From positions 1 through 41,162 of the forward strand of contig PHCA01000041.1 of assembly GCA_002842085.1 (NCBI GenBank): a stretch of DNA of 41,162 nucleotides. The letters are read 5' to 3'. Under the pieces are notes generated by a model. The model was not told where the DNA came from and ran no database searches. It saw nothing but the letters and a program-made list of their open reading frames with translations. Of the stretch, positions 11,341 to 40,203 are shown in pieces. The translations under genes were made by a program, and so were the position numbers. This stretch comes from Chloroflexi bacterium HGW-Chloroflexi-1 (lineage in GTDB: Bacteria > Chloroflexota > Anaerolineae > CG2-30-64-16). Within the stretch, counting starts at the first letter, position 1; every line of letters starts with the position of its first letter.

Positions 11341-11627
11341 AGATGGCAAATGGCAAATGGCGGATGGCAGATGGCGGATGGCAGATGGCGGATGGCAGAT
11401 GGCGGATGGCAGATGGCGGATCGCAGATGGCGGATGGCAGATGGCAGATGGCAGATGGCGGATGGCAGATGGCAGATGGCGGATGGCAGATGGCAGATGG
11501 CGGATGGCAGATGGCAGATGGCGGATGGCAGATGGCAGATGGCAGATGGCGGATGGCGGATGGCGAATAGCAGTGGCAAACCGGCAATCGCAAATCTGAA
11601 ATCGCAAATCGCAAATCGCGACCTTCG
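11341..11627. repeat. Heptamer tandem arrays: (GGCAAAT/GGCRGAT) about 33 units, then (AATCGCA) about 6 units
   Basis: Read directly. Starts 2 nt after the pcrA TAG stop and generates the spurious MADGRWQ ORFs. Confidence 0.97.
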
Positions 11628-11925: not shown

Positions 11926-12640
11926 GAGTTTCTCCAACAAACGTTACGACGCGGTGACCCTGGACATGGGGTTCACCCTGGTCAATCTGGAGGGCAGCAC
12001 GCATCGCGATCTGCTCGCCGCGCTGGCGGCAGAAGCGGGCCTGACCCTGACCCTGGACGACGTTCGTCGGGCGATACGCGCTTTCTGGCGCGAGTGGACG
12101 GCCGAAAATGCCACGCGCGTGTGGCATCCCAGCCTGGCCCAGGATCAGGCCTCCTCCTACGAGATAGACCAGCAAATCTGTCTGCGGCTGGGCATCACCG
12201 ACCCGGCTCTGCACGCCGAGGCCAACCGCCGTTCGGAGGCGATCTTCCACGACCTGGCGACCTTCCAAGTCTTCCCCGAGGTGTTCGAGGCGTTGACCAC
12301 CCTACGAACGCAGGTGGAGACCCTGGGCATCCTCTCCAACTGGGGGTGGCGATTGCCGGAGTTGTGCGCGGCATTGGGCCTGGCCGACTACTTCGACTTC
12401 ATCATCACCTCGGCCCGGATCGGCGCGGCCAAACCCCACCCGAACATCTTCCGGGCCGCGCTCGCCCGGGCTGCGAGCGACCCGGCGCGCACCCTGCACG
12501 TGGGCGACGATCTCGCCGCGGACGTGCACGGCGCCCAGGCGCTGGGCATCACCGGCGTATTGCTGGACCGGCACGGCGCCATCACACCCGACGGTTTTCC
12601 TGTCGTGCACAGTCTCACCGAGGTGGTGACGCTTTTGTGA
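11924..12640 (+). CDS. HAD-superfamily hydrolase, subfamily IA (haloacid dehalogenase / REG-2-like type)
   Basis: Motif I VTLDMGFTL (DxxxT type), motif II ILSNW, motif III AKPHPNIF, motif IV HVGDDLAADVHGA. Confidence 0.85.
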   Translation: MSFSNKRYDAVTLDMGFTLVNLEGSTHRDLLAALAAEAGLTLTLDDVRRAIRAFWREWTAENATRVWHPSLAQDQASSYEIDQQICLRLGITDPALHAEANRRSEAIFHDLATFQVFPEVFEALTTLRTQVETLGILSNWGWRLPELCAALGLADYFDFIITSARIGAAKPHPNIFRAALARAASDPARTLHVGDDLAADVHGAQALGITGVLLDRHGAITPDGFPVVHSLTEVVTLL

Positions 12641-12770
12641 CACGGTGACCGGGTGACAAGGTGACATCGAGTAACATCGCTGTGCCTCCTTGTTTACTCT
12701 TGTCTACTTGTCTACTTGCCTACTTATCCCTTGTCTACTTGTCTACTTGTCTACGCGTTTCCTTGTCTCC
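12637..12770. repeat. Paired octamer arrays: (GGTGACAN)x4 (12637-12668) and (CTTGTCTA-like) about 10 units (12689-12770)
   Basis: Read directly. Lies between the convergent HAD and pncC genes. The HAD TGA stop (12638-12640) is inside the first unit. Confidence 0.95.
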
Positions 12771-13731: not shown

Positions 13732-14697
13732 ATGGAACACCTCGAGGTCATCGCCTCGCTGGCCGAGCGAGTGGTCGACAACGTCGAGCACGTGATCATC
13801 GGCAAACGACGCGAGGTGGAGATGACGCTGATCGCGCTGCTGTGCGAGGGGCATCTACTGATCGAGGACGTACCGGGCGTCGGCAAGACGATGCTGGCGC
13901 GCGCGATCGCCAAATCGATCGGCTGCTCGTTCCGGCGCATCCAGTTCACCCCCGACATGCTGCCCAGCGACGTCACCGGCGTCTCGGTGTTCAACCAGAA
14001 GACGCGCGAGTTCGAGTTCCGGCCGGGCCCGGTCATGGCCCAGATCGTGCTGGCGGACGAGATCAACCGGGCCACCCCCAAGACCCAATCGGCCCTGCTG
14101 GAGGCGATGGAAGAGCGCCAGATGACTGTAGATGGCGTGACCTATATCATGGAGAAACCGTTCCTGGTGCTGGCGACACAAAATCCGATCGAATACGAGG
14201 GCACCTTCCCGCTGCCCGAAGCGCAAATCGACCGCTTCATGATGCGGGTGAGCCTGGGCTACCCCGCCAAAGCAGACGAGATTCGCATCCTGGAATCGCA
14301 GCGGGAACATCACCCGATCCAGGACATCGGTCAAGTGGTGACGGCCGCAGAGTTGTTGGCCGCCCAAACCGCGGTGCGCCAAATCTACGCGGACAATCTG
14401 ATCAAGGAGTACATCGTCGATCTGGCCAACGCCACCCGCCACCATCCGGACATTTACCTGGGCGTAAGCCCGCGCGGCAGCCTGGCCCTCTTCAAAACGG
14501 CCCGCGCCTACGCGACCTTGCAAGGCCGCACCTACGTCATCCCGGACGACCTCAAGGCGCTGCTGGCATCGACCTTTGCGCACCGCTTGATCATCAGCCC
14601 GTCGGCGCGCATCAAGAACGTCGAGGCCACCGCCGTCGTCGAGCAGATCGCCGCGTCGGTGCCGGTGCCAGGGACGCGGGTGAGGGCCATACGGTGA
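13732..14697 (+). CDS. moxR: MoxR-family AAA+ ATPase
   Basis: AGGAG lies 8 nt upstream. [33 protein letters not shown] (Walker A), [23 protein letters not shown] (Walker B / sensor), [22 protein letters not shown]. Confidence 0.93.
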
Positions 14698-14767
14698 CAC
14701 GGTGACAGGGTGACAGGGTGACAAGGTGACGGGGTTGTCTACTTGTCTACCTGTTTCCTTGTCTACC
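14693..14767. repeat. Paired octamer arrays: (GGTGACAN)x5 followed directly by (TTGTCTAC-like) x4
   Basis: Read directly. The moxR TGA stop (14695-14697) is inside the first unit. Same unit pair and order as at 12637-12770. Confidence 0.95.
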
Positions 14768-16067: not shown

Positions 16068-16112
16068 GTCCCACCAGCCCGAGCAAGCAGACACGGCCAG
16101 GATACTTGACAC

Positions 16113-16250
16113 GGGGTAAATTGGTAAATTGGTAACGGGGTGAATTGGTAAATTGGTAACGGGGTAAATTGGTAAATTGGTAACGGGGTAAATTGGTAAA
16201 TTGGTGACAGGGTGACCAATCTACCAACCTACCAACCTACCAATCTACCA
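16113..16250. repeat. Hierarchical array: 24-nt unit GGGGTAAATTGGTAAATTGGTAAC x4 (itself built of GGTAAATT octamers), then GGTGACAGGGTGACC, then (CTACCAAY) x4
   Basis: Read directly. Ends at the ATG (16251) of the S8 peptidase. Confidence 0.95.
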
Positions 16251-18218
16251 ATGTCTCACCAAACCCGACAGATCCTGCGCTTGACCGCGGTCGCGGCGAT
16301 CCTCCTGGCGCTCGTGGCAACTGCTACCAGCACCGGTATCAACCTGGCCGCGGCCGGTAGCGGCGCTCCTCGACCGGCGCCCGCTGCGTCTGCGCCCGCT
16401 GCGTCTGCGCCCGACCGCGGCCAACCGGACTGGGCCGCGCCACGCGTGGCAGACCAGTTGCTGGTCAAGCTGCCGGATGGCCAGGCCCTCCCGGACCAGG
16501 CCGCGCTGGCCCGCGCGGGTGTCCGCCTCCTGCGCACCATCCCGCAATTGGGGCTGGCAGTAGTCGCAACGCGGCCCGGCGCCGATCTGGCGGCCTCTGC
16601 TGTCGATCTGGCGGCCTCTGCTGCCGATCTGGTGGATCGCGGCGGGTTCGCGTGGGCCGAGCCCAACTACACCTTCGGCCTGGACCTGGCGCCGAACGAC
16701 CCGGACTACGCCGCGCGCCAGAGCGTCTACCTGGGCCGGATGGGCATGCCCGCGGCCTGGGACCGCACCACCGGCCTCCCCTCGATCATCATCGCGATCG
16801 TAGACACCGGCGTGGACCTGACCCACGAAGATCTCTACAAGGGTATCTGGATCAACCCGGGCGAAGTGCCGGGCAACGGCGTGGACGACGACGGCAACGG
16901 TTTCGTGGACGACGTCAACGGCTGGGATTTCGCGGACAACGACAACGTACCAGACGACGACTACGGCCACGGCACCCATGTGGCGGGCATCGCGGCCGCG
17001 CGCATCGACAACGCCGTGGGTGTTGCCGGCATGGCCGGCGCCGCCACCATCATGCCCGTGGACGTGTTCCCGCACAGCGCCTACGGCACCTACGAGGATT
17101 TGATCCGGGCGATCATCTACGCGACCGACAACGGCGCAAACGTCATCAACATGAGCCTGGGCGCCACTTCCTACAGCCAGGGCGAAGAAGCTGCGGTGGA
17201 CTACGCCTGGTCGCACGGCGTGGTCGTGGTCGCGGCGGCCGGCAACACCGGCCGCTGCTCCTACCACTATCCGGCAGCCCATGTCCACGCGATCGCCGTG
17301 GCGGCCACCGACGCTTACGACAACCTGGCCGGCTTCTCGACCCGCGGCGACTTCGTGGACGTGGCCGCGCCCGGCGTGGGCGTCTGGTCCACCTACCGCG
17401 GCAACCGCTACGGCTCGATGAGCGGCACCAGCATGGCCACGCCGCACGTGTCGGGGCTGGCCGCGCTGATCCTGTCGCTGAACCCGAACCTGACCCCGGA
17501 CCAGGTGCGCACGCTCATCGAGGCCAACGCCGACGACCTGGGCGCGCCCGGCTGGGATCCCGAGTTCGGCCACGGCCGGATCAACGCCGCGCGGGCGTTG
17601 GCCGCCGTGCCCGGCAACACCACGCCGCTGCCCACGCCCACGCCGCATCCGCCGCTGCCCGAGTGGCCGGCCGGCTGCCAGGACCTGCTCGACGATGGCG
17701 ACTTCGAGGCGGGCGCCGCGGTCTGGCAGCCGCACGGGGACGTCACGATCGACGCGCTGCGCGCCTACTCCGGCGCCCACGCCGCGCATTTTCCCGGCGG
17801 GCCGGACACCCGCGGCATCCTGACCCAGACGATCACCCTGCCCCCCTTCCCCCAAGAAGCCACCCTCTGGTTCGCCTACCGCATCGAGAACCAGGATCAG
17901 GGCTGGGGCAGCACGTCCGAAGCGCCCTATGACGACTGGTTCACCGGCGAGTTCCGGGCGGCCGACGGCCGCGTCATCAGCTCACTGCTGCGCACCGGCA
18001 ACTCGGCCGACACCGCGTCCGATGGGCTGCCGTGGGATCGCTATCTGTACCGGATGCAGTTCGCCGATCTGACGGCTTTACGGACGGCCGGCTCAGTGGA
18101 CCTGGTCTTCAGCGCGGGGAACGACGGGGACACGCTGCCCACCGACGTCTGGCTGGACGCGGTGCGCTTCTGCGTCAGGGGCGGGTATGGGTGGATTTTC
18201 CCGGTGATCTTGAAGTAG
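16251..18218 (+). CDS. Secreted subtilisin-family (S8) serine peptidase with a C-terminal CBM-like domain
   Basis: Catalytic triad contexts IAIVDTGVD, GHGTHVAGIAAA, GTSMATPHVSGLAAL. N-terminal TM/signal LRLTAVAAILLALVATA. The C-terminal domain (CQDLLDDGDFEAG...VWLDAVRFCV) resembles the C-terminus of the 6231-8489 hydrolase. The ORF also opens at GTG 16212, inside the repeat array. Confidence 0.92.
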   Translation: MSHQTRQILRLTAVAAILLALVATATSTGINLAAAGSGAPRPAPAASAPAASAPDRGQPDWAAPRVADQLLVKLPDGQALPDQAALARAGVRLLRTIPQLGLAVVATRPGADLAASAVDLAASAADLVDRGGFAWAEPNYTFGLDLAPNDPDYAARQSVYLGRMGMPAAWDRTTGLPSIIIAIVDTGVDLTHEDLYKGIWINPGEVPGNGVDDDGNGFVDDVNGWDFADNDNVPDDDYGHGTHVAGIAAARIDNAVGVAGMAGAATIMPVDVFPHSAYGTYEDLIRAIIYATDNGANVINMSLGATSYSQGEEAAVDYAWSHGVVVVAAAGNTGRCSYHYPAAHVHAIAVAATDAYDNLAGFSTRGDFVDVAAPGVGVWSTYRGNRYGSMSGTSMATPHVSGLAALILSLNPNLTPDQVRTLIEANADDLGAPGWDPEFGHGRINAARALAAVPGNTTPLPTPTPHPPLPEWPAGCQDLLDDGDFEAGAAVWQPHGDVTIDALRAYSGAHAAHFPGGPDTRGILTQTITLPPFPQEATLWFAYRIENQDQGWGSTSEAPYDDWFTGEFRAADGRVISSLLRTGNSADTASDGLPWDRYLYRMQFADLTALRTAGSVDLVFSAGNDGDTLPTDVWLDAVRFCVRGGYGWIFPVILK

Positions 18219-18246: not shown

Positions 18247-18720
18247 CCGTGCTTCATAAATGATTTTTCGGCCCGAAAGTGGGCGACTTTGCGTCATTTG
18301 AATCTTGCAGCTATCCATAGCGCGGCCTCCCGCCGCAACCAAAGGGCTGTCATTGCGAGGGCCTCGCTGTGGCGAGGGCCTCGCTGTGGCGCGAGGAGCG
18401 CCGTTTGCGGTTGCGAGGCACGAAGCAAAGCAATCTCCCTCGCTAACCAGGAAATTGCGGCAATCGAGATTGCGGCAATCTCGATTGCTTCGCAAAACCG
18501 CTCGCAATGACGCCGTTAAAGATTCTCGCTATCAACGCAAATGTCGCTGGGTCATACTATAGCGCGGCCTCCCGCCGCAACCAAACCCCTTTCGTTGAAA
18601 GGCCCTTTCGTTGAAAGGCCCTTTCAACGAAAGGCGTTTTCAACGCAAAGGCACAAAGACGCAAAGAAATCAAAAAGGCCTTTGCGTCTTTGCGTCTTTG
18701 CGTTGAAACCCGGCGAAGCA
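18247..18720. repeat. Composite repeat island (nested direct, tandem and inverted repeats), with no convincing CDS
   Basis: 27-nt perfect direct repeat ATAGCGCGGCCTCCCGCCGCAACCAAA at 18317-18343 and 18559-18585. 17-nt tandem GCGAGGGCCTCGCTGTG x2 (about 18353-18390). 16-nt tandem CCCTTTCGTTGAAAGG x2 followed by its inverse (about 18586-18635). GCAATCnnGATTGC palindromes (18469-18495). CAAAGACGCAAAG / CTTTGCGTCTTTG inverted pair (18653-18700). Confidence 0.85.
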
Positions 18721-28375: not shown

Positions 28376-29613
28376 ATGAACGAGTGAACCAAACCGCCTT
28401 TGCTAAGGTTCCATCCGAGAATTTGCGCCCAATTTGCTGGGGCCGGTCTCCCGACCGTGCCCCCTGGCACCCCCTGGCTCGGTCAGGAGACCGGCCAGAG
28501 CATGTTCGGATAGATTCTAAACGGCCGCTGGGGATCATCCTGCTGTGCGCGGTGCTGTTGGCCGCCGTCAGCCTGAGCTGTTCGGTGGGACAGGTCCTGG
28601 TGGGCCGCTCCACGTCCACCGTGCCGACCGCCACCAAGACCCCGCGACCCACGTTCACGCCGTTGCCGGGCGCCTTCACACCTTTGCCGACGTCCGCCAG
28701 CGCGGTCCGAGGCAGTCTGCCGCCAGGCGTCACCGTTGTGCCCCCCACCGAGGCAGCCCCGCTGGCCCAGCCCGGCGAAACCGGCCGCACCAACCTGATC
28801 CTTTTCGCCACCGAGACGCCGGCGCCCACGCCCACCCGCGTGCCGACCGACACCCCCGGGCCGACGCCCACGCCAACCCCCGACGTCGAGACCAACCGCC
28901 CGACGCGCGCGACCGGCCCGCGGGTTTTGCCGACGCCGTACGTCGTGGTAAACTCTACGACGCTCAACGCGCGCCGCGGGCCGGGTGAAACGTTCGATCT
29001 GTTAGGCCAGGTAAAACAGGGGGATGAGCTGCTCGTCCTCGGGCGCACCCCTGAAGGGGATTGGTGGCAGGTGTGCTGCATCGCCAATCAGCCGGGCTGG
29101 GTCGCCGCCGAGCTGGTCACAGCCAGGGGGCCGGTTGACGACGTGCCGGTGCTCACCCCGGCGCCGACGCCCGTCCCGACCTCGCGGCCGCTACCGACCG
29201 ATACGCCGGGACCACTGCCCACCCCGCTGCCGCCGTTCGACATCGCGCGCGGCCCCGAGTTCCCGATCCAGCGGGATACCGGCATCATGACCATCTGGGT
29301 GAAGGTGTACGAGGGGAGCGCGCCCTACGAGAAGCCGCTATCCGGCTATATCCTGAAGGTGTCCCACGACGGCGTGGACGTCAGCAGCCCGGAGCAATCG
29401 TTCGGCGACGCGCCGTTCGACAAGACCGCCAAGACCGAAGGAGAGCGCGAGTACAACCTGAAGTTCGAGATGTACGACGCCAGCGAGGCGGATTGGCAGA
29501 TCTACCTGGCCAAACCGGATGGCTACCGGGTCTCGCCGATCAGGGAGTTCACGACCAAGGGGGATTCGTATCGTAATCTGGTCGTCTACGTCGCATACTG
29601 GCTGGCGCGCTAA
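28372..29613 (+). CDS. Lipoprotein: PT-rich linkers, SH3b domain, C-terminal domain (paralog 2 of 3); start uncertain
   Basis: Signal-like KRPLGIILLCAVLLAAVSLSCS begins near 28519. SH3b-like LNARRGPGETFDLLGQVKQGDELLVLGRTPEGDWWQV. The only in-frame ATG/GTG/TTG upstream (28372, 28384, 28423) lie before a palindromic repeat copy (28441-28497). Confidence 0.55.
   Translation: MNERVNQTAFAKVPSENLRPICWGRSPDRAPWHPLARSGDRPEHVRIDSKRPLGIILLCAVLLAAVSLSCSVGQVLVGRSTSTVPTATKTPRPTFTPLPGAFTPLPTSASAVRGSLPPGVTVVPPTEAAPLAQPGETGRTNLILFATETPAPTPTRVPTDTPGPTPTPTPDVETNRPTRATGPRVLPTPYVVVNSTTLNARRGPGETFDLLGQVKQGDELLVLGRTPEGDWWQVCCIANQPGWVAAELVTARGPVDDVPVLTPAPTPVPTSRPLPTDTPGPLPTPLPPFDIARGPEFPIQRDTGIMTIWVKVYEGSAPYEKPLSGYILKVSHDGVDVSSPEQSFGDAPFDKTAKTEGEREYNLKFEMYDASEADWQIYLAKPDGYRVSPIREFTTKGDSYRNLVVYVAYWLAR
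28441..28497. repeat. Copy of the palindromic element, subfamily with TCTCCTGACC in place of TCTGTGACC
   Basis: GGCCGGTCTCCCGACCGTGCC ... GGCTCGGTCAGGAGACCGGCC. Both arms carry the variant, so pairing is kept. Confidence 0.85.
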
Positions 29614-29628
29614 GACGACATCACCTGT

Positions 29629-29728
29629 GTGGTGCGTAGTGCGTGGTGCGTGGTGCGTATTCCGTAGCCCATGTCTGCACATTTTCCGCAGTACGCAATC
29701 CGCAATTCGCAATCCGCAATCCGCAATC
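29629..29728. repeat. Two heptamer arrays: (GTGGTGC) x5 (29629-29663) and (CGCAATC) x5 (29694-29728)
   Basis: Read directly. Lies between SH3b lipoprotein paralogs 2 and 3. The second array ends 2 nt before the AGGAGG RBS. Confidence 0.93.
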
Positions 29729-29746
29729 CAAGGAGGAAGACAAGCA

Positions 29747-30688
29747 ATGCACTTTCGTTTCTGGGCCTTGATCATTATTGTGATGCTGTTGGTGGCCGTT
29801 GCTGGATGCGCTGGCGGCCAGTCGAGCGTCGCGCCGACGCCGGTTCCAACCAAGACGTTACGGCCGATATTCACCGCTACGCCCGCAGTGCCGACCCCCG
29901 TGCCGCCCACGGCCACACCGCAGATCCCGCCCACGGCCACCCCGGAGCCAACCGCGGCCGAACCACCCACGCCCGAACCGCCGACCGCGGCGCCGGCTAC
30001 GGCCACACCTCAACCGGCGTCGTTCACCGTGACCAGCGCCACCGTCAACATCCGTAACGGGCCCGGGACCAACTACGTTCGGATCGGGCAAGTGCGCCAA
30101 GGCCAGACGTTCGAGATCACGGGCAAGAACCCGGCCGGCGATTGGTGGCGATTCGACTACAACGGCAAAATTGCCTGGGTTATCGGCCGGCTGGTCAGCG
30201 CCAACGCGACCGGGAGCGTCCAGGTAGCGTCCGACATCCCGGCCCCGCCGCCCACCGCGCGGCCGCAGCCGACGGCCAAACCCGCGACCGCCCAACCGAC
30301 CCCGCCGCCCGCGCCGCCGCTACGGTTCGCGCTCACGGGCAAATCGCAACTGCGGCTCAACACCAACGATTTTGTGACCGTCTGGTGTTTCGTCTTCAAT
30401 CGGTCCGAGACCGCCCTGGTCCCCGGTACATTGCGCGTCACGCGCGATGGGGCTGTCATCAAAGAGCAAGCCTTCACCGGAGGACTCGAGTCAGCGCACG
30501 GCGATCCGGGCATTTCGGGCAGCGAGTTTCTCTACAATCCAGGCTGCAAGGTCGAAATCCAGCCGGCCCAGGACGGCAACTACAGCGCCTATCTGATCCA
30601 GGGTGGCCAGCAAGCCTCTGACGTCTTCAATTTCAACGTCAGCGGCACGACCAACCGGACCGCGATCATCGAATGGAAAGAGAAGTAG
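29747..30688 (+). CDS. Lipoprotein: PT-rich linkers, SH3b domain, C-terminal domain (paralog 3 of 3)
   Basis: AGGAGG (29731-29736) lies 10 nt upstream of the ATG. MHFRFWALIIIVMLLVAVAGCAG (lipobox VAGC). SH3b-like VNIRNGPGTNYVRIGQVRQGQTFEITGKNPAGDWWRF. Confidence 0.78.
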   Translation: MHFRFWALIIIVMLLVAVAGCAGGQSSVAPTPVPTKTLRPIFTATPAVPTPVPPTATPQIPPTATPEPTAAEPPTPEPPTAAPATATPQPASFTVTSATVNIRNGPGTNYVRIGQVRQGQTFEITGKNPAGDWWRFDYNGKIAWVIGRLVSANATGSVQVASDIPAPPPTARPQPTAKPATAQPTPPPAPPLRFALTGKSQLRLNTNDFVTVWCFVFNRSETALVPGTLRVTRDGAVIKEQAFTGGLESAHGDPGISGSEFLYNPGCKVEIQPAQDGNYSAYLIQGGQQASDVFNFNVSGTTNRTAIIEWKEK

Positions 30689-39120: not shown

Positions 39121-40203
39121 TCAAGACACCCCTCTCGTCTTCGACATTTGCCAATGCACCTCGGGATCCCGCCAATGTCGCAGCCGCCAGACCCACCCGG
39201 CCGGGTAGCCGACCATCTTCGCCACGTCGCCCACCGCGCGGATGGCCGGGATCAGCGCAATGGCCCGGAGCTGGTCGACGGGGGCGAGATTGAGCAGGTG
39301 GGCGTGCAGCCGGCGGAAGGGGGTGCGGCAGTAGACGACGGCGCCGCCGGCCAATCCCAGCAACCATAGCGGGCTGTGGGCGATGCTCAAGATCAACACG
39401 GCAGGCAGGGCAACGAGATACGTGGCATAACGGATGGCGTGGCGCTTCCGCCAGAGGTCGGCCTTGCCATCGCCACGGGCGTAGCGGTAGTATTGCTTGA
39501 AGTAAGCGCGCATGGAGCCCCGCGGCCGGAAATGGGCCACCGCGCCCGGCGCCCACACGAAAGGCCCGGTCGCGTCTTGCAACCGGAAGTCAAAGATCAG
39601 GTCCTCGCAGTAGTCCAGCCACTCCGGGTAGCCACCCGCGGCCGCCCACGCCTCCTTGCGAAACGCCACCGACCGGCTGGATGGCAGGAAGGCGCCTGGA
39701 TCGACGTCACCGATCGCTGGCAACACCGTCGCGCCCATCGCAGCCTCGAACGGGGTCTGCGGGTCGGGGACGAAGAAGCCGGCGACGGATTGGGGATTGG
39801 GGATTGCGGATTGCGGATTGCGGATTGCGGATTTGCGATTTGCCGATTGGTCGATTTGCTGATTCGCTGATTCGCTGATTTGCCCGCTTTCCAACGGCGC
39901 GACCAACGCAGCGAGCCAGGCTGGCTCCAACCACACCCCCGCGTCGGTGGATGCGATCACGTCGCCGGTGGCAGTCCGGATGGCCACGTTGCGGCCGCGG
40001 GAGATGTTGGCGCCTGGTTCGATCAACACGCGCAGCTTCAGCCGGTCCGCGTACGATTCGATCACCGCGACGGTGTTATCGCGCGAGCCGCCGTCCACGA
40101 TCACGACCTCGTCGGGTTGCCGGGTTTGAGCCACCAGGCTGTCCAGCATCCGGCGGATCGATTCCCCTTCGTTGAGCACGGTACAAATGACGCTGACGCG
40201 CAA
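39121..40203 (-). CDS. Family 2 glycosyltransferase with C-terminal TM segments
   Basis: TTG start with GGAG upstream. VSVICTVLNEGESIRRMLDSLVAQT....EVVIVDGGSRDNT...ISRGRNVAI......IASTDAG (GT2 DxD-type core). Confidence 0.85.
   Translation of the reverse strand: MRVSVICTVLNEGESIRRMLDSLVAQTRQPDEVVIVDGGSRDNTVAVIESYADRLKLRVLIEPGANISRGRNVAIRTATGDVIASTDAGVWLEPAWLAALVAPLESGQISESANQQIDQSANRKSAIRNPQSAIPNPQSVAGFFVPDPQTPFEAAMGATVLPAIGDVDPGAFLPSSRSVAFRKEAWAAAGGYPEWLDYCEDLIFDFRLQDATGPFVWAPGAVAHFRPRGSMRAYFKQYYRYARGDGKADLWRKRHAIRYATYLVALPAVLILSIAHSPLWLLGLAGGAVVYCRTPFRRLHAHLLNLAPVDQLRAIALIPAIRAVGDVAKMVGYPAGWVWRLRHWRDPEVHWQMSKTRGVS
39787..39884 (-). repeat. Degenerating 7-8 nt array (plus strand GGATTGG/GGATTGC/GATTTGC/GATTCGCT) inside the GT2 CDS
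   Basis: Read directly. Translates as SGQISESANQQIDQSANRKSAIRNPQSAIPNPQS between GT2 core segments. Confidence 0.9.

Follow-up and report, generated by a model that had tools for sequence, protein, structure and literature searches.

A compound array of octamers and heptamers inside a GT2 glycosyltransferase gene of an Anaerolineae bacterium, and related short-unit arrays across its genome

The window analyzed here, a stretch of 41,162 nucleotides from a contig of Chloroflexi bacterium HGW-Chloroflexi-1, carries near its end a GT2 glycosyltransferase gene with a tandem array of 7- and 8-nt units in its reading frame. Two questions arise from this locus. How does an array of such units come to lie within the coding sequence of an enzyme, and does it serve that enzyme or reflect a process that acts on the genome as a whole? 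We approached these questions through the anatomy of the tract, its position in the modelled protein, the wider population of similar arrays, and the fate of the same site in related genomes.

Anatomy of the tract and its place in the fold

The original prediction placed an in-frame 7-8 nt array at 39787-39884, and this was confirmed. Tandem Repeats Finder (TRF) reports one row at 39786-39849 (period 7, 9 copies, CGGATTG) and one at 39825-39884 (period 8, 7.6 copies). Self-match in the heptamer half reaches 0.91 at lag 7; the octamer half reaches 0.80 at lag 8. None of 10,000 shuffles equalled the tract at either lag. Read on the minus strand, which is the coding strand, the array consists of six 8-nt units followed by seven 7-nt units (Table 1). 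It is thus a compound of two abundant unit families, the 8-mer and then the 7-mer, and not, as had been supposed, a single 7-8 nt family that degenerates toward its two ends. The octamers encode about GQISESANQQIDQSAN and the heptamers about RKSAIRNPQSAIPNPQS; the repeat peptides of the tract are NPQSAIR and NQRISESA. Within the 360-aa open reading frame, residues 106-139 read SGQISESANQQIDQSANRKSAIRNPQSAIPNPQS, which agrees with the peptide given earlier. The insert has a mean hydropathy of -1.19, and the opposite strand of the tract has a stop in all three frames.

The tract corresponds to a long simple sequence repeat as that class is defined, with a unit of 5-11 nt in head-to-tail copies above chance, and the third property of the class, membership of an excess seen throughout a large, GC-rich genome of a non-pathogen, is also present. 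In RNA structure prediction the array was less structured than shuffles (z = +1.61), and for this reason a hairpin or attenuator role was dropped. The GT2 tract is in this respect unlike the paired inverted intergenic arrays of the same window. Those arrays, at 12637-12768, 14691-14766, 16111-16252 and 18587-18703, often lie side by side in twos, the units of one being near reverse complements of those of the other (for example, ACGCAAAG and CTTTGCGT), and long hairpins could form from them.

Table 1 Coordinates and units of the repeat tract, its gene, related arrays and the loops of homologs
Feature	Coordinates	Strand	Units	Remarks
GT2 (GT-A fold) glycosyltransferase gene	39121..40203	-		360 aa, TTG start; ORF and Pfam
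Codons of the 34-residue insert loop	39787..39888	-		Residues 106-139, helix 96-106 to strand 139-146
Octamer sub-array	39837..39884	-	GGCAAATC, AGCGAATC x2, AGCAAATC, GACCAATC, GGCAAATC	Order from 39884 to 39837
Heptamer sub-array	39788..39836	-	GCAAATC, CGCAATC x4 (perfect), CCCAATC x2	Order from 39836 to 39788
Non-coding CGCAATC-family array	29685..29729	+	CGCAATC	5' leader; after gene stop at 29613
Non-coding GCAAATC-family array	11586..11619	+	GCAAATC	Directly after a 32-copy GCAGATG array
HemN-like loop, source genome (G000)	C5:11589-11660		GAATCAGC plus CGCAATC	Octamer-then-heptamer compound
HemN-like loop, G001 (L025)	G001:C260		CAGCCAT	Contig ends inside array
HemN-like loop, G010 (L024)	G010:C72		GCAAACT/GCAAATG
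Loop peptide ESANQRIS			(GAATCAGC)n	GT2 homologs
Loop peptide IRNPQSA			(ATCCGCA)n	GT2 homologs
Loop peptide FAIRHSP			(TTCGCCA)n	GT2 homologs
Loop peptide SAISHQP			(TCAGCCA)n	GT2 homologs
Loop peptide QLPASSF			(CAGCTTC)n	GT2 homologs
Loop peptide IPNTQYP			(ATACCCA)n	GT2 homologs
Loop peptide MADGKWQ			(ATGGCAG)n	GT2 homologs

The gene lies between those for a serine O-acetyltransferase (cysE) and a xanthine phosphoribosyltransferase (xpt). Its product matches Pfam PF00535 (Glycos_transf_2) over residues 4-107 (E=3.4e-23, 82.9 bits versus a cut-off of 23.3) and PF13641 (Glyco_tranf_2_3) over residues 3-242; PF13632 also matches. Matches to NCBIfam were all below threshold (the best, MftF, at 75 bits versus a cut-off of 280), and those from a PDB sequence search were confined to the N-terminal half of generic GT2 enzymes. 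We built an AlphaFold2 model of the protein on 54 orthologs (mean pLDDT 82, pTM 0.80). The model has alternating beta and alpha elements, with GT-A strands at residues 3-9, 32-37, 57-61 and 82-87, further core strands downstream of the insert at 179-182 and 216-225, and four long C-terminal hydrophobic helices at about residues 253-342. Foldseek matched it to GT2 structures down to E=2.4e-12, the best match being 6yv7, the membrane mannosyltransferase PcManGT. The acidic metal/nucleotide-binding motif expected after beta-4 of a GT-A fold is found in S85-T86-D87-A88-G89, of which D87, A88 and G89 are invariant in the 54 orthologs, and helix 96-106 comes after this motif.

The segment encoded by the tract had been placed between the catalytic core and the transmembrane region. 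In the model it instead splits the GT-A fold: the core strands 179-182 and 216-225 come after the insert, so that the tract interrupts the catalytic domain itself, between the helix after D87 and the next beta-strand. Flanking residues have a pLDDT of 90 or more, and the block values within the segment are 58 (residues 111-120), 52 (121-130) and 71 (131-140). The 34-residue loop is hydrophilic and probably disordered, and the linker-like behaviour proposed for it holds in the sense of a tolerated segment modelled with low confidence (pLDDT 52-58 over residues 111-130). The insert-free ortholog P0120 (325 aa), modelled likewise, has helix 96-105 and strand 111-118 joined by a 5-residue turn with a pLDDT above 90. 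The frame is open and insert-free orthologs align collinearly with the flanks, so the gene can be explained without recoding or the removal of an intron or intein.

The repeat population of the genome

The source assembly (G000) comprises 4.45 Mb in 419 contigs, with 62.7% GC. TRF returned 628 period-7 and 631 period-8 rows, which merge into 1,166 arrays covering 64.5 kb; these counts and lengths are lower bounds, since the assembly breaks at repeats: long arrays adjoin N runs and scaffold gaps at C27:28412, C317:18275 and C322:5740. The AATCCGC unit family ranks third in the genome with 86 arrays, and the AATCAGCG family ranks fifth with 55. The pattern (CGCAATC)3 has 75 matches and its reversed control none; across the reversed-pattern controls there were 0 matches, versus 75 and 144 for the forward patterns. 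Other genera of the family have unit families in common with the source genome, in abundances that differ by genus. Within the window, the units of the GT2 tract recur, as first noted, in two non-coding arrays, one of CGCAATC and one of GCAAATC (Table 1). The former fills most of a 5' leader and stops a few bases short of AAGGAGG and of the ATG at 29748.

About 198 arrays, roughly one in six, fall within long ORFs and are flanked on either side by coding signal, as placed by a simple codon-usage score trained on long ORFs and with heuristic gene calls. Among arrays that have open, coding-like sequence of one strand abutting each side, 157 preserve the frame; the other 51, which do not, fit arrays at gene junctions. 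Orientation within genes is biased to the strand that gives a stop-free, polar repeat peptide. The AATCCGC family occurs 23 times in the sense orientation (NPQSAIR) versus 4 times in antisense (ADCGLRI), the AATACCC family 33 times versus 4, and the AATCAGCG family 8 times versus 0. The last is never antisense in genes because its antisense strand contains TGA. Unit families that have stops whichever way they are read hardly occur in genes.

Repeat peptides of the GT2 type are found in four housekeeping enzymes, where they separate Pfam domains: shikimate dehydrogenase (AroE), MoeA, PriA and a HemN-like radical SAM enzyme. In the shikimate dehydrogenase gene (C308:4309-4566), an 86-residue ESANQRVS tract of about 32 octamers separates the substrate-binding from the NAD-binding domain. 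The HemN-like gene carries an octamer-then-heptamer compound in frame (GISESANQRISESQIRNSQSAIRNQ) and has in common with the GT2 tract an exact 17-nt junction, AATCGCAAATCCGCAAT, of which the genome holds 3 copies. At one site of the HemN-like protein, just before CRHNLVYW, three genomes have three different unit families (Table 1). The octamer family stands 5' of the heptamer family in 5 cases to 0 among compound arrays. Separately, two neighbouring membrane-protein ORFs (C406:4053-4211 and C406:6713-7202) show the same succession of unit families, GGGGGCA, GCGAATCA, AATCCAC/AATACCC and AATCCGA; an identical stretch of about 30 nt forms a junction common to the two tracts, of which the second is over 360 nt long.

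The GT2 tract is one of about 200 tolerated tracts and not a special device of the GT2 gene. We consider it likely that it is a long simple-sequence repeat that has been remodelled by slippage, filtered by selection and tolerated by a conserved GT2 enzyme at a permissive turn on its surface; most likely it has no function itself. A strong mutational process would make and remodel 7/8-nt arrays across the whole genome. We infer replication slippage as the generating process; together with unequal recombination, and possibly copying between arrays, it would let arrays grow, shrink and change unit. Within genes, selection would then act as a filter at three levels. Arrays would survive only in insertion-tolerant loops, only in the orientation with a stop-free, polar repeat peptide, and only if their gains and losses of units leave the frame intact overall, since units of 7 and 8 nt must change by multiples of three. 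The turn after the D87 helix of the GT2 enzyme would be one such permissive loop, and the tract, as predicted from its open frame, would be translated straight through as a hydrophilic loop of 34 residues.

A broader reading, which we consider unlikely, is that the arrays, instead of arising independently by local slippage, are linked to one another and pass sequence from locus to locus, by array-to-array templated repair, by conversion or by some dedicated process. Permissive loops such as the GT2 turn would then be long-lived landing pads with a content that is overwritten again and again. Hints of such exchange are the octamer-5' order, the 17-nt junction, the units of the HemN-like loop and the units common to several genera; local slippage alone does not explain the recurrence of the same units at dozens of loci and in several genera. 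The hints are also compatible with mutation of units in situ followed by expansion, as illustrated by ATCAGCGA and ATCAGCC, which have six bases in common.

Turnover at the loop in related genomes

An ortholog of the GT2 gene is present in all 41 related genomes, at 50-88% identity. There are thousands of homologs, the best 120 of which share 64-78% identity. In the alignment of these 120 the flanks '...WLxxLVAPL' and 'VAGFFVPD...' are conserved, and the segment between LVAPL and VAGFF ranges from 7 to 67 residues. The peptides that fill it are recognisably translations of 7- and 8-nt units (Table 1). Orthologs with the segment carry repetitive DNA there, as opposed to the non-repetitive DNA that would have pointed to convergent low complexity. 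TRF found period-7/8 arrays, often of other units, in the loop DNA of 13 of 14 parsed long-loop orthologous loci (L002-L014) and in none of five short-loop loci; locus L015 was left out of the per-locus counts. Three further close relatives examined at the DNA level likewise have a repeat-bearing or decayed loop. One further relative has GCGAATC-type octamers followed by CAGCTTC heptamers, another has about twelve CCCCAAT/CCCCAGT heptamers, and in L023/P0005 the tract is largely decayed, with non-repetitive sequence in the middle. The ortholog of one 65%-complete genome (G002:C2:427425-428419) is split over frames and contains stops, consistent with either a broken gene or poor sequence.

In other families of the class (16 genomes) the two halves of the protein abut with few codons between them, which leaves only a short turn. 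An ESANQRI-type 5' part recurs among many divergent orthologs. To judge from these comparisons, the loop site appears to have held arrays since before the genera of the family split. The tree of the 120 homologs served only to list the loops beside relatives, as the content of the loop turns over too fast for the tree to resolve.

Arrays that persist at one site across many genera could also mean that the loop is useful, with the polar segment kept by selection because it serves as a flexible lid, for interaction or localisation, or as a membrane spacer. The array-derived loop is indeed found at exactly the same site in most genera of the family, and the recurrent ESANQRI-type part would fit such a role. 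We nevertheless regard a selected loop as improbable. Its length runs from 7 to 67 residues and its sequence is unconserved; close relatives have short loops (7 residues in P0120, 11 in P0008 and 13 in G001); the insert is all but missing from the other families of the class; of the two models, the one without the insert is if anything the more confident; and the same peptides appear in unrelated enzymes. We infer that the loop is neutral.

The clearest view of change at this site comes from a congener, G001, whose protein is 82-88% identical to that of the source genome over two matched halves and falls in a cluster that one source calls 'Anaerolineae bacterium CG2_30_64_16' (sister species). 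At the loop site G001 has only GGGCAAATC GACATACC GGCAAATC CGCAATC CG, a 36-nt remnant. Relative to it, the source genome has 3 additional octamers (24 nt, after the first unit) and 6 additional heptamers (42 nt), which together amount to 22 codons. Each extra block is a multiple of three units, which is what frame-preserving selection on slippage products predicts. Given these blocks and the short remnant in G001, the perfect central copies (four of CGCAATC and two of AGCGAATC) are probably young and the product of a recent expansion. An array that is still expanding and contracting usually looks like this, with degenerate edges around a homogeneous centre.

The gradient of degeneracy had been read as an old insertion being assimilated as a linker. 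This reading is incomplete: although the site is old and shared across the family, what it contains turns over. A single old insertion that now only decays by point mutation into an ordinary linker is about as improbable as a selected loop. It would account for the degenerate edge units and for the largely decayed tract of L023/P0005, but not for the difference of whole blocks of 3 and 6 units between two congeners, for the persistence of four identical heptamers and two identical octamers despite the divergence of the flanks, or for the other unit families at the same site in relatives.

Within each species the loop is identical, in 3 independent records of the source species and in 14 of the sister species, and no variation in its length was found among these protein records. 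Change in the loop is thus visible between species and not between the sampled strains, and it is the differences between species that suggest ongoing instability. Where relatives have a match split at the loop, both halves lie in one frame by their coordinates, with the clear exception of G002, which is broken in several places.

These observations bear on phase variation. Switching of LPS genes driven by simple sequence repeats is well known. The GT2 tract resembles the phase-variable glycosyltransferase genes of Haemophilus, Neisseria and Campylobacter in having, within a glycosyltransferase frame, a repeat whose unit length is not divisible by three, as expected of a contingency gene, and it includes four perfect CGCAATC copies in which 7- or 8-nt slippage could shift the frame and reversibly turn the enzyme off. 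It differs from them in that no out-of-frame allele was seen in the 3 + 14 records, in that variant units interrupt the tract, and in that the host is a free-living groundwater/sediment bacterium. The gene is moreover a core gene, with a conserved single ortholog in each of the related genomes, and not an accessory surface gene, and the same tracts occur in the housekeeping genes for AroE, PriA and MoeA, where switching would be senseless. We therefore regard a switch as very improbable. A collapsed or chimeric repeat in the metagenome-assembled genome is the least probable explanation of all: arrays do break the assembly elsewhere (N runs and contig ends, including the HemN-like contig of G001), but in records from NCBI, ENA and JGI the 360-aa protein is the same and its loop identical (one record has a substitution elsewhere), the reading frame is unbroken, and a read pair is longer than the tract of 98 nt.

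Known repeat systems and the meaning of the tract

Long simple sequence repeats with units of 5-11 nt, among which heptamers are commonest, are described as typical of large GC-rich genomes of non-pathogens, and slippage has been proposed as their generator (Mrazek, Guo and Shah 2007, as cited in PMC4679880 and PMC4692102). The arrays described here are like them in their head-to-tail 7- and 8-nt units beyond chance, their hundreds of loci, the prominence of heptamers, and the size and GC content of the genome. They are unlike them in that about one array in six is in a gene and predicted to be translated, in that octamers are as common as heptamers, and in that the host is a metagenome-assembled genome of the Chloroflexota (Anaerolineae). 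Our literature search retrieved no paper linking heptanucleotide tandem repeats with Chloroflexi, and a search on STRR likewise retrieved nothing on the group.

The heptameric STRR of cyanobacteria, GGGGA(T/C)T of Nostoc and GGGAATC of Xanthomonas are reported to be under-represented in coding regions and prone to form G-quadruplexes (PMC4692102). The present arrays share with these repeats the genome-wide distribution of tandem heptamer families, the dominance of a few units and a variable copy number. The GT2 array differs in lying inside a gene, in having no G tracts and in the low predicted structure of its RNA. Membership of the cyanobacterial STRR was rejected, the host being a member of the Chloroflexota and the units being different. 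The unit of STRR1 is CCCCAGT. The same unit appears in the loop of ortholog L022, and we treat this as a coincidence. In marine Beggiatoaceae, TAACTGA heptamer repeats are intergenic, lie upstream of start codons and have been proposed to be regulatory (PMC4679880). They resemble the present arrays as a heptamer family that is dispersed over many loci and common to related genomes, and differ from the GT2 array, which is coding.

For the GT2 gene the tract has little consequence: it is a passenger, and the gene is best annotated as an intact GT2 with a low-complexity loop, neither a pseudogene nor a switch. Tracts of this kind break assemblies, and both gene callers and homology searches can be misled by them. 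In-gene arrays also provide a natural map of insertion-tolerant loops, and they show cleanly how a strong mutational process is filtered when selection acts on frame, stop codons and polarity. That a family of Anaerolineae carries hundreds of 7/8-nt arrays, with a sizeable share of them in conserved enzymes, is of moderate interest for genome evolution.
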